Shown piece after piece: positions 55,093 through 57,539 of a DNA stretch of 64,000 nt. The notes under the pieces are model-generated. The model searched no databases, was not told the DNA's origin, and worked only from the letters and a program-made list of their open reading frames with translations. The first letter of the stretch is position 1. Each line of letters begins with the position of its first letter. A program made the translations under genes and the position numbers. The stretch comes from Polyangiales bacterium (GTDB lineage: Bacteria > Myxococcota_A > Polyangia > Polyangiales > Ga0077539), in contig JBGARZ010000009.1 in the NCBI GenBank assembly GCA_044229975.1, positions 64,001-128,000 of the forward strand, in the 5' to 3' direction.

Positions 55093-55121
55093 TTGACGGC
55101 CATTTCGACATGGCGTACAAG
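55093..55121 (+). promoter_or_regulatory. Putative sigma-70 promoter of the leader-tRNA unit
   Basis: TTGACG-N17-TACAAG in an AT-richer patch. Confidence 0.5.
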
Positions 55122-55133
55122 CAGACCGTCGCC

Positions 55134-55229
55134 ATGTCGCTCTCGTCATTCACCTTCGCTGCCCTCACCACCCGTCGCCTGCTGGGCGCACGGGGAGGGC
55201 GCGGTCGCGGTACCGGCCTCGGGCGTTAG
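55134..55229 (+). CDS. Putative 31-aa Gly/Arg-rich leader peptide
   Basis: MSLSSFTFAALTTRRLLGARGGRGRGTGLGR-stop; 7 Gly in the last 14 codons; stop codon buried in hairpin 55217-55255. Confidence 0.5.
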   Translation: MSLSSFTFAALTTRRLLGARGGRGRGTGLGR

Positions 55230-55330
55230 AACCCTCCAGGGGTTCACGTCCGAGGACGACCGGAAGGTTCGACGCTGACATTGCGGGAGTGAATCGCTGG
55301 AAACGGCGGTTTTTCCCGATGTCCGCGCGC

Positions 55331-55405
55331 GCGGGAGTAGCTCAATGGTAGAGCGCCTGAGTGCCCCTCAGGCTGTTGCGGGTTCAAGTCCCGTCTCCCG
55401 CTCCA
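55331..55405 (+). tRNA. tRNA-Gly(GCC) with atypical anticodon loop
   Basis: Acceptor GCGGGAG/CTCCCGC, U73, encoded CCA; D stem GCTC/GAGC; anticodon stem CCTGA/TCAGG with loop GTGCCCC; T loop TTCAAGT. Confidence 0.85.
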
Positions 55406-55427
55406 CGGCAGCGATGCCGTGTCCGTT

Positions 55428-55498
55428 GCGGCGCTGGTCTAGTGGCTGGGCCTCAGGCTTCCAACCTGATGAGGTCGGTTCGATCCCGACGCGCCACA
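55428..55498 (+). tRNA. tRNA-Gly(TCC)-like, degenerate acceptor end
   Basis: Anticodon stem TCAGG/CCTGA with loop CTTCCAA; T arm GTCGG-TTCGATC-CCGAC; acceptor GCGGCGC/GCGCCAC has a C2-A71 mismatch, A73 and no CCA. Confidence 0.75.
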
Positions 55499-55566
55499 CT
55501 TCGTTCATCGATGACGGTCTTCATCCATGTACCGTTGGTGCCAATGGTCACATTGGTGTGCTTTAT

Positions 55567-57539
55567 CAGGGTTGAGTGGCTGAGCTGAGCGCCGCTTCGC
55601 CCGCAGCGTATCAACCGCCAGCGTGCCGTCGCCCCTCTGGACGGGAGCTCCGGGATTCTGTAGTCGCAGCCTATGAGCGACGCCGCCACCGACGTGCCGA
55701 GTCCCGACGGCCTGACGATCAAGCAGGCCCGAATCCTGGAGAGCTACTACTCGCTCCGACAGCGCCTTCCCGGTCCGAGCATCGGGAGCCACGAGGTCTT
55801 GCAGGAGCTTCGGCGCAAGGGCCCGCTCGTCGACCTTCCGAGCGAGGCGTTGATCCGAGACGTGCTGGCCTCTCACGACCTACCGCGTCGACGGGGCGGG
55901 CGACCGCGCCTGTCGTCCAAGGAGGTCGCGCCGCCGGACGACCCTTTGGTCGCGTCGGCGAGCGGGGCGCCGACGAGCCCCGCATCGAGCAGTCGGTCGG
56001 GACGCTCCTCCTCCCGGCGCTGATCGCAGGACCGTTGCAGGCGATCGCGGCGCAGGTCGCGTCGTCGCCGCGCGAGGTCGCACGAACGACGACGATCCTG
56101 AGCGCGTTGGCGGGTCGCTTGCTGACACGAGGAGGGCTCGCCGCCGCGTCGCGTGACGCGGGCGCAGAGACCCTGTTCACGGGGCGAGCGCGCCCGTACA
56201 GCGAGGCGTGGCTGCGGCAGGAGGCCGAGCGAATCGAGCAGGCGGGCGGCGCGATCGCGTGTGCGCAACAGGTGTTCGCGCAGGTGACTACCGCGGCTCG
56301 GGGCCACGTGGTCACGGCGTTCACCGACATGTTCGATCAGGTGTGGTGGACCAAGCGGCCCGCGCACGCCGGTCCCATCGGCCGTCTGGCCAACCGGTGC
56401 CTGGGGGCGGTGTACTTCGGCGTGACGACGGTGCACATCGCGCTCGATACGTCGCCCGGCCTCACGCTCGGACTGCACCTCTCGGCGCACAAGCCCGCGA
56501 CGCCGCTGTACGACGCCATCGAAGACCTGTCTGCCGACGAGGAGCGTCGGCGCTGGCTCCAGTCGGTGCATCACTTCGTCGTCGATCGCGGCGGCAACGG
56601 GAAGCGAACGCTGCGCTTCATGCACGACGCGCGCTTGCCGTACCTGACGATGGCCCAGCGATCGACCGAGCTCCCCGCCGTCGCCGAGGCCACCGACTTC
56701 ACCGAGTCGGGGTTGCCGTTGCGGGTCACCCCCGACCTCGACCTCGCGGGCGACGTGGCCCCGAACGCCGACGAGCCAGGCCCGCGTCGGATCGCCTTTC
56801 CCGCGAACCCTGATCGCGGCGCCGCGTGTGAGACGGCGATCGTGTACCTCGTGGACGCCACGCTCACGCCCGACGAGCTGCGCAACCTCGACGCGGTTTA
56901 CAAGGGTCGCTGGGGCGGCGGGGAGAACGTGCTCAAGGCGTGGCAGGCGGTGGGCTTCGGCGTCAATCGCAGCCGCCGCATCGAGCTCGCGTGCAGCCGC
57001 GGCGACGACGGCAAGTTGGAGCGCAGCGCGGCGCGGTACGAGGCACTGGCCGAGACCCTTCAGTCGATCAACCACCGTGGGAGCCCGAAGGAGGCCCGGC
57101 ACTTCGATCGAACGTTGATGAAGATCGGCGCCGAGACGCTCAAGGCGCAGCAGATTCGTGACAAGCCCACGACGAAGCACGTCCGCGTGGTCGATGGCAC
57201 CGGCGAGATGCTGGCCAAGTGGCTGATGCTGCTGCTCACCAACGCGCTCGCGATCACGCTGGGTTGCAGTCGCATCCCGGCGGTCCGCACGATGACGCCC
57301 GCGCGCCTGAACGAGTTGCTGCTCGGACGAAGCACCATCGCGGCGATCGGCGCGGCGGAGATCGCTCTCTACCTGGAGCCCATCCACGAATACCGAGATC
57401 GCGAACATCAGCGAGAGTTGGTGAGGGTCTTCGACGAGGCCGCCCTCACGCTGAGGGGGCGAACGTTACGCCTGCGCCTGCGCAAAACCCGAGGGATCGG
57501 CTGATGCTGGCGGTTTTCGAGGCCCACCACTCAACCCTG
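55567..57539 (+). mobile_element. Complete insertion sequence (1973 bp), DDE transposase, family unassigned
   Basis: Perfect 13-bp TIR CAGGGTTGAGTGG / CCACTCAACCCTG; 5-bp duplication TTTAT at 55562-55566 and 57540-57544. Confidence 0.92.
55673..57504 (+). CDS. Transposase, probably OrfA (55673-56023) fused to the -1 frame OrfB
   Basis: OrfB has FTDMFDQ, VVDRGG and YKGRWGGGENVLK (IS4-superfamily-like Y-x2-R...E...K); the overlap holds C_CCT_TTG plus a hairpin. Confidence 0.75.

Follow-up and report, generated by a model that had tools for sequence, protein, structure and literature searches.

A leader open reading frame (ORF) and a predicted attenuator likely restrict the transcription of two spare tRNA-Gly genes of a Polyangiales bacterium to times at which a ribosome is stalled on one of the final Gly codons of this ORF; we put the probability of this reading at roughly two in three. 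The genes lie in a 64,000-nucleotide stretch of contig JBGARZ010000009.1, here referred to as the window. A translation-sensing switch for auxiliary tRNA-Gly had been proposed in a preliminary description, and this proposal is now supported by the ribosome-dependent folding of the leader, by codon-matched leaders throughout the genome, and by the conservation of sibling leaders in two genomes of the same genus. Because of these same three lines of evidence, the alternative raised there, that the Gly/Arg enrichment of the ORF simply reflects high GC, is disfavored. Since the tRNA genes decode the codons that are sensed, their product would directly relieve the stall. The purpose of the switch may be the replacement of tRNA-Gly after its loss or cleavage, because an extra tRNA cures tRNA loss and not amino acid starvation.

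The unit starts with a promoter candidate, TTGACG-N17-TACAAG, on the forward strand at 55093..55121 (TTGACG starting at 55093 and TACAAG at 55116, with a spacing of 17 nt), which is preceded on its 5' side by an AT-rich stretch. It was found where the preliminary description had placed it and, although not passed by an E. coli-type promoter scan, it is of a type that also precedes the housekeeping tRNAs and the other leaders of this genome. A permissive pattern of our own choosing, TTG-N16-18-(T/G)A, fits 27 of 34 housekeeping tRNA unit starts, the other 7 being without a match; among these 27 promoters, the hexamer ends in T in only 5, and the sites are separated from the tRNA by 7 to 49 nt, an interval that contains an ATG in just 2 cases. 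The first ATG past the -10 box of the Gly unit opens a predicted leader ORF of 31 codons (55134..55229, forward strand), while a second in-frame ATG at 55110 is located inside the promoter spacer. The coordinates and composition reported for this ORF were confirmed: seven Gly codons (GGC, GGA, GGG, GGT, GGT, GGC, and GGG), comprising all four kinds, fall within its last 14 codons and span codons 18 to 30 (55185-55223). Seven Gly residues in 30 codons are weak evidence when taken alone (binomial P = 0.021 against a six-frame background), and the leader scores equally high for Leu (z = 2.7) and Gly (z = 2.6). The clustering of the Gly codons toward the 3' end is rarer than the bare Gly count: among 8,689 ATG ORFs of 25 to 40 amino acids in the genome, 7 have at least seven Gly in their last 14 codons, and 4 show this clustering with all four Gly codons. 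A hairpin, termed A, is predicted inside the ORF at 55161..55200 (forward strand), covering codons 10 to 22.

Folding models of the leader yielded three mutually overlapping helices, which are selected by the position of the ribosome. The first is a hairpin at 55217..55255 on the forward strand (segments 1:2; -27.1 kcal/mol, z = -6.0, matched by 0 of 200 shuffles). Its 5' arm holds codons 28 to 31 and the stop codon, in agreement with the earlier claim that the stop lies inside a long hairpin, and its loop and 3' arm hold the antiterminator strand. This hairpin had been called attenuator-like; it is real and belongs to a predicted attenuator layout, but as the protector. We rejected it as a terminator because a T-run is missing 3' of it. 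The antiterminator strand (55235..55247, forward strand) is complementary to 55289-55301, with 12 of 13 positions paired at -18.0 kcal/mol, and 2 of 2,000 shuffles of the upstream region paired equally well with this target. This target region corresponds to the 5' arm and loop of the third element, a predicted weak intrinsic terminator at 55293..55314 (forward strand), which consists of a 7-bp stem of -8.6 kcal/mol with a GAAA loop and a run of five T (55310-55314) and which was missed by a terminator scan. Upon read-through, it is predicted to grow into a longer hairpin (55277-55323), within which an 8-nt copy of the 5' end of the first tRNA (55283-55290) is paired. Two other pairings, capture of the tRNA 5' strand by 55313-55318 and pairing of codons 5 to 7 with 55289-55294, were rejected at a model probability of 0.00 each.

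The switch was modeled by blocking a ribosome footprint at each codon, with equilibrium folding and an assumed start site. When the RNA was exposed to 55310, the antiterminator formed at codons 30-31, 29-30, and 28-29 for footprints reaching 9, 12, and 15 nt past the A site, respectively. Its probability was 0.65 to 0.95 at codons 28 to 31, depending on the footprint, and 0.00 to 0.02 at all earlier codons, at the stop codon, and without a ribosome; in all other states, including these last two, the terminator had a probability of 0.74 to 1.0. With the RNA exposed only to 55308, the terminator had a probability of only 0.2 to 0.3 in most states. In a queue model, in which ribosomes cover the whole 5' part, the antiterminator window widened to about codons 26 to 30. 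A comparable switch was obtained in 1 of 150 spacer shuffles. Stalls at Gly18 to Gly24 did not flip the structure in most model settings, and only Gly26, Gly28, and Gly30 are predicted to control it. According to these models, the protector would hide the antiterminator strand when no ribosome is present, and the terminator would form; a ribosome at the stop codon would cover the antiterminator strand, with the same outcome. A ribosome awaiting Gly-tRNA at codons 28 to 30 (26 to 30 with a queue) would cover just the 5' arm of the protector, and the freed antiterminator strand could pair with 55289-55301, so that the polymerase would read through into the tRNA genes.

The host genome (G000; 10 Mb, 71% GC) carries the Gly unit on contig C36 and contains 44 housekeeping and 27 auxiliary tRNA genes, a count that excludes 14 ARAGORN calls (12 judged false, a tRNA-Sec, and a degenerate Arg-gcg on contig C2). 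None of the auxiliary anticodons is missing from the housekeeping set. The auxiliary genes are arranged in ten blocks of one to five genes on eight contigs, namely, Gly, Glu/Arg/Asp (twice), Tyr/His (twice), Asn followed by Lys/Arg, Leu, Cys/Ser, Thr, and Trp/Phe/Gln, and at the head of every block, an ORF follows a promoter candidate. The Gly unit is one member of this dispersed set, which may serve as a tRNA backup and may have come from a long tRNA array of the stress type. As the leader of a block, we took the ORF that opens with the first ATG downstream of the -10 box, and we added an internal leader that precedes Lys/Arg; this choice was not blind. Cognate codons make up 20 of 41 codons in the Cys/Ser leader (P = 7e-9), 4 of 10 in the His/Tyr leader (P = 3e-4), 9 of 15 in the Asn/Lys/Arg leader (P = 0.001), 15 of 33 in the Glu/Arg/Asp leader (P = 0.012), and 7 of 30 in the Gly leader, whose P value is given above. 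The Thr leader (6 of 49; P = 0.056), the Trp/Phe/Gln leader (8 in the first 99 codons; P = 0.1), the Leu leader (3 of 22; P = 0.12), and the Lys/Arg leader (7 of 30; P = 0.39) are not individually significant. With two paralogues excluded, the true pairing of nine leaders, chosen by hand and not blind, with their tRNA sets ranked first among 362,880 permutations; it also ranked first among 40,320 when Gly was omitted. In the Leu leader, the codons CTG, CTT, and TTG are arranged in the same order as the anticodons of the three tRNA-Leu genes.

Several of the auxiliary tRNAs are unusual. A pyrimidine at position 37 is present in 2 of 27 auxiliary versus 0 of 44 housekeeping tRNAs, and U33 is missing in 3 of 27 versus 0 of 44. 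The three auxiliary tRNA-Leu (L034, G000:C19 132218-132612) are 73 to 76 nt long, without a long variable arm, and the auxiliary tRNA-Cys (L031) has an atypical T-loop and was missed by ARAGORN in the host genome. In the Trp/Phe/Gln block (L032, G000:C16 from 42026), the leader frame of >100 codons runs through the tRNA-Trp gene and reaches a Gln-rich stretch directly before tRNA-Phe and two tRNA-Gln genes. A housekeeping-type tRNA-Ile with a TAT anticodon is located at G000:C20 281741; a tRNA-Ile with GAT was not found in the assembly.

Such leaders also precede other genes. A short release factor-like gene (PCRF and RF-1 domains, GGQ) lies behind the Tyr/His tRNAs at both loci (L037, 432-1110, on contig C34, and L036 on contig C4). 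It scores below all NCBIfam cutoffs and is split at CTT-TGA-C or CTT-TAG-C, a site that we take to resemble the prfB frameshift site. The Thr block (L033, on contig C21 of the host, and L080, in the same-genus genome G005) consists of a leader, a terminator, an HNH gene, tRNA-Thr, a YrlA-like RNA (40.5 bits, below the cutoff of 69), and tRNA-like remnants. At L264 (842-3563; contig C2), the same promoter type, a 52-codon leader, and a terminator precede a TROVE/Ro60 gene along with palindromic repeats, a degenerate tRNA, and repeated small RNA-like motifs. We infer that the RF-1-domain gene, the HNH gene, the YrlA-like RNA, and the TROVE/Ro60 gene fit a context of RNA damage and ribosome rescue.

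Conservation could be followed for the sibling leaders. Matches to the Ser/Cys block are present in 12 of 30 genomes of the same family. In other genera, they belong to long arrays of 12 to 30 tRNAs, whose genes share 81 to 90% identity with the block. The 400 nt upstream of five such arrays, viewed by eye, contain A-rich promoter repeats and no recognizable leader; the tandem A-rich repeats over the promoters of long arrays L069 to L073 are possibly a repressor site. In two of eight same-genus genomes (G004 and G005), the matching tRNAs form small blocks, each with a terminator and a leader rich in Ser/Cys; this arrangement is found in 3 of 3 copies, including that of the host. These leaders share a segment whose predicted pairing with the terminator arm lasts up to the point at which the ribosome has moved past the Ser/Cys codons; in the host copy, the pairing is also predicted without a ribosome. 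G005 additionally keeps the Glu/Arg/Asp leader. For the Thr leader, no switch was seen in the folding models.

The His/Tyr unit is likewise found in G004 and G005, and in none of the other 398 of 400 genomes of the order that were searched; all 4 copies agree in the last six codons of the leader, apart from synonymous changes in His codons. This unit bears on the possibility that the leader controls the folding or processing of the tRNA rather than, or in addition to, transcription, by pairing with the acceptor 5' strand until ribosomes free the tRNA for RNase P. Several sibling units (the short His/Tyr, Asn, Leu, and Glu units) have no T-run, and in all four His/Tyr copies, a long hairpin arising from the His codons is predicted to capture the 5' strand of tRNA-Tyr (probability, 0.74 to 1.00), which in the folding model is mostly released by a ribosome at His6 or His7. 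One compensatory change was detected, a synonymous His substitution that is matched by a change at tRNA position 5. This suggests for His/Tyr a second output at the level of tRNA folding. In the nascent Gly transcript, too, codons 1 to 4 pair with the tRNA 5' strand. The complete tRNA-Gly(GCC), however, folds correctly in every ribosome state modeled (acceptor probability, 0.72 to 0.99), the cloverleaf predictions for the siblings are noisy and lack a housekeeping tRNA control, and the only metagenome match to the His/Tyr unit keeps the hairpin and tRNA-Tyr, with the position of the His leader occupied by a tRNA-Ser gene; a search of viral contigs with the His/Tyr pattern gave 0 matches. For the Gly unit, we therefore regard control of folding or processing as unlikely, albeit the best of the competing explanations.

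It is also conceivable that the attenuator is real but senses stalling in general, such as that caused by antibiotics or by arrest on an Arg/Gly-rich peptide, and not a lack of Gly-tRNA. Stalls at Thr27, Leu29, and Arg31 flip the modeled switch as well, the leader contains six Arg residues, and the Anabaena array is induced by chloramphenicol (PMC8421152, partial text). Leaders of distant arrays are relevant here. A scan of species genomes with the auxiliary tRNA-Ser pattern gave at least 121 loci; among the matches listed, a tRNA unit was located at the match in 59 that had long flanks, and upstream sequence of 400 nt was available for 57. Among these listed matches, a hairpin with a T-run was present in 30 and a short ORF in addition in 26, numbers that have no shuffle control and surely include some chance cases, as well as internal array gaps taken for unit starts. 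Twenty loci selected by hand, 19 of them from Planctomycetota, have a leader of 29 to 39 codons ending in TGA. Between the stop region of these leaders and the terminator arm, 195 of 240 cells are paired, compared with a mean of 180 upon swapping of partners (1 of 5,000), although core pairs were fixed by the anchor and kin are not independent. The conserved Planctomycetota leader family (loci among L100 to L177) ends in an RL-stop motif. In small units, the leaders match the tRNAs (Ser/Leu in L159 and L165; Pro/Asn/Ser in L106 and L161), and the long arrays of this phylum have leaders of mixed composition, as a general sensor might. Three Bacteroidota loci (L136, L160, and L217) also have a leader and a terminator before long tRNA arrays; neither feature was seen at the Chloroflexi arrays L099 and L167. 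General stalling is nevertheless quite unlikely as the signal, because a nonspecific sensor gives no reason for the codon match observed across the genome.

The switch is followed by two tRNA-Gly genes, both on the forward strand and both detected by ARAGORN and Rfam, so that the pair announced in the preliminary description, with anticodons GCC and TCC, is borne out. A tRNA-Trp called over the hairpin by ARAGORN at a relaxed threshold was rejected, as it is absent in Rfam. Both genes are spares, as the genome encodes housekeeping tRNA-Gly elsewhere (GCC on contig C34, TCC on C32, and CCC on C10), and both match housekeeping-type tRNA-Gly best, the body of the GCC gene resembling the housekeeping TCC gene. 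The first gene, tRNA-Gly(GCC) (55331..55405), has an encoded CCA and an odd anticodon loop with G32, C37, and C38 and predicted extra stem pairs. Its Gly identity set, G1-C72, C2-G71, C35, C36, and U73 (as listed in PMC10464925, partial text), is intact. Its T-stem contains G49-U65, C50-G64, and G51-C63, which are high-affinity pairs for EF-Tu, and lacks the weak A49-U65 and A51-U63 pairs of the staphylococcal nonproteogenic tRNA-Gly (PMC7826273, partial text). The second, tRNA-Gly(TCC) (55428..55499), has a C2-A71 mismatch, A73, and no encoded CCA. It is possibly poorly charged or decaying, because two GlyRS identity elements, G71 and U73, are missing and the genome encodes an α2β2 GlyRS, with no dimeric GlyRS above the cutoff. 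The suggestion that the pair reads all four Gly codons is thus uncertain. The anticodon stems of the two tRNAs (55356-55372 and 55453-55469) are mirror images (CCTGA/TCAGG versus TCAGG/CCTGA), and cross-pairing between them is therefore possible.

Downstream of the leader, there are only the tRNA genes and then an IS-like element, and no biosynthesis, synthetase, or resistance gene. This element (55567-57539) starts 68 nt downstream of the unit and is bounded by terminal inverted repeats of 13 bp; contig C37 carries another full copy, and ends of the element recur at several contig breaks. Neither Pfam nor NCBIfam has a match to its long ORF, which possibly represents an undescribed transposase family. 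The two ORFs flanking the unit have no family matches either. Behind the G005 orthologue of the upstream gene, the DNA is unrelated over the 120 nt left on that contig. A search of 40 relatives for the Gly unit gave no homologue, all 29 loci retrieved being housekeeping-type tRNAs, and the leader alone had none in eight same-genus genomes, its best match lying inside a coding region. Searches of 400 genomes of the order and 400 of the phylum, in which two candidates per genome were scored and 11 of 18 retrieved loci were checked, gave matches to the tRNA body only, as did a plasmid search. The Gly unit pattern had 0 metagenome matches and one viral match, without a tRNA. As no homologue was found in the genomes searched, covariation is not available for the Gly switch. 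By eye, no leader stands before glyQ. Among four sequencing runs compared (16 were listed), no contig covered 55151-55314, and near-identical pieces fell in multicopy IS; for these reasons, we make no claim about habitat or expression.

The damaged acceptor stem of the TCC gene, the nearby IS-like element, and the absence of the unit from the orthologous site in G005 and from the relatives searched would be expected of a formerly functional cassette that is now decaying or silent. The promoter, the ORF, the three helices, and tRNA-Gly(GCC), however, show no damage, and we consider decay improbable. The extra anticodon-stem pairs and C37 of the GCC gene would speak for nonribosomal glycine donors of the staphylococcal cell wall type, whose nonproteogenic tRNA-Gly have a 5-base loop (PMC7826273, partial text), and the GC-rich genome would speak for an ORF that is a chance frame. 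We consider these readings more improbable still, given the EF-Tu pairs of the GCC T-stem, the lack of an identified transferase gene next to the unit, and the outcome of the shuffle and permutation controls.

Beyond the stall-dependent attenuator of the Gly unit, we tentatively raise a wider possibility, which we regard as doubtful: this lineage may have split a long stress tRNA array into amino acid cassettes, each with a codon-sensing leader, and so gained a genome-wide, codon-resolved network that replaces destroyed tRNA families. Its outputs could be termination (Gly and Ser/Cys) and tRNA folding via control codons on the acceptor strand (His/Tyr). Since an extra tRNA helps after cleavage and not during starvation, each cassette would therefore report which tRNA family is attacked, and at about 400 nt, the cassettes are clonable. 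So far, attenuation is known from genes of amino acid synthesis, from synthetase genes, and from resistance genes, and the only backup tRNA operon tested is run by a repressor. If correct, leader attenuation would be a principal means by which the long tRNA arrays of bacteria, including those of Planctomycetota and Bacteroidota, are regulated; this would explain the control and retention of many cryptic tRNA arrays, and a tRNA gene induced by stalling at its own codons would form the shortest possible translation feedback loop.

The glycine T-box riboswitch binds uncharged tRNA directly, without translation, and controls termination. The Gly unit is similar in that the status of tRNA-Gly is predicted to be sensed and termination to be controlled, but it is predicted to act via translation, and Rfam at the gathering threshold identified only the two tRNAs, and no T-box, in the whole window. 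Phage tRNAs serve as replacements for cleaved host tRNAs (PMC10264068, partial text); they are comparable as spare tRNAs with altered anticodon loops, whereas the auxiliary tRNAs described here are chromosomal. The Anabaena trn array, considered here together with the TrcR regulon, is a single operon under promoter repeats and a repressor, and cyanobacterial L-arrays are flanked by HNH and RNA-processing genes (PMC8421152, partial text). Shared features are supernumerary, redundant tRNAs that add no new anticodons to the housekeeping set, linked HNH, RNA repair, or translation genes, and the presence of long arrays in relatives of the same family. By homology, this likeness extends to the Ser/Cys block and the HNH gene at the Thr block, while the Gly genes are closest to housekeeping-type genes. 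Unlike the Anabaena operon, the tRNAs are divided here into amino acid blocks, each with its own leader, the Gly unit having just two genes and, by eye, no obvious repressor repeats over its -10 box. In the main texts of PMC8421152 and PMC10272220, "leader" and "attenuat" do not occur, and the leader control covered in the available parts of PMC4833913 and PMC8632094 concerns protein-coding genes. The literature searched, with most subscription journals outside its scope, gave no description of leader or attenuator control of tRNA genes, in line with the statement in the preliminary description that no system of this exact form was known. The closest parallels in design are the trpL and hisL leaders, with their I:II protector, II:III antiterminator, and III:IV terminator (PMC1183508, partial text), and uORFC-8-2, a leader attenuator before the aminoacyl-tRNA synthetase gene cysS (PMC8632094, partial text). 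The Gly unit shares with them a short ORF with cognate codons, three mutually exclusive helices, a T-run, and predicted read-through upon stalling. It differs in that its terminator is weak, and absent from some sibling units, in that about ten blocks of the genome share the design, and in that the cargo consists of tRNA genes for the very codons that are sensed.
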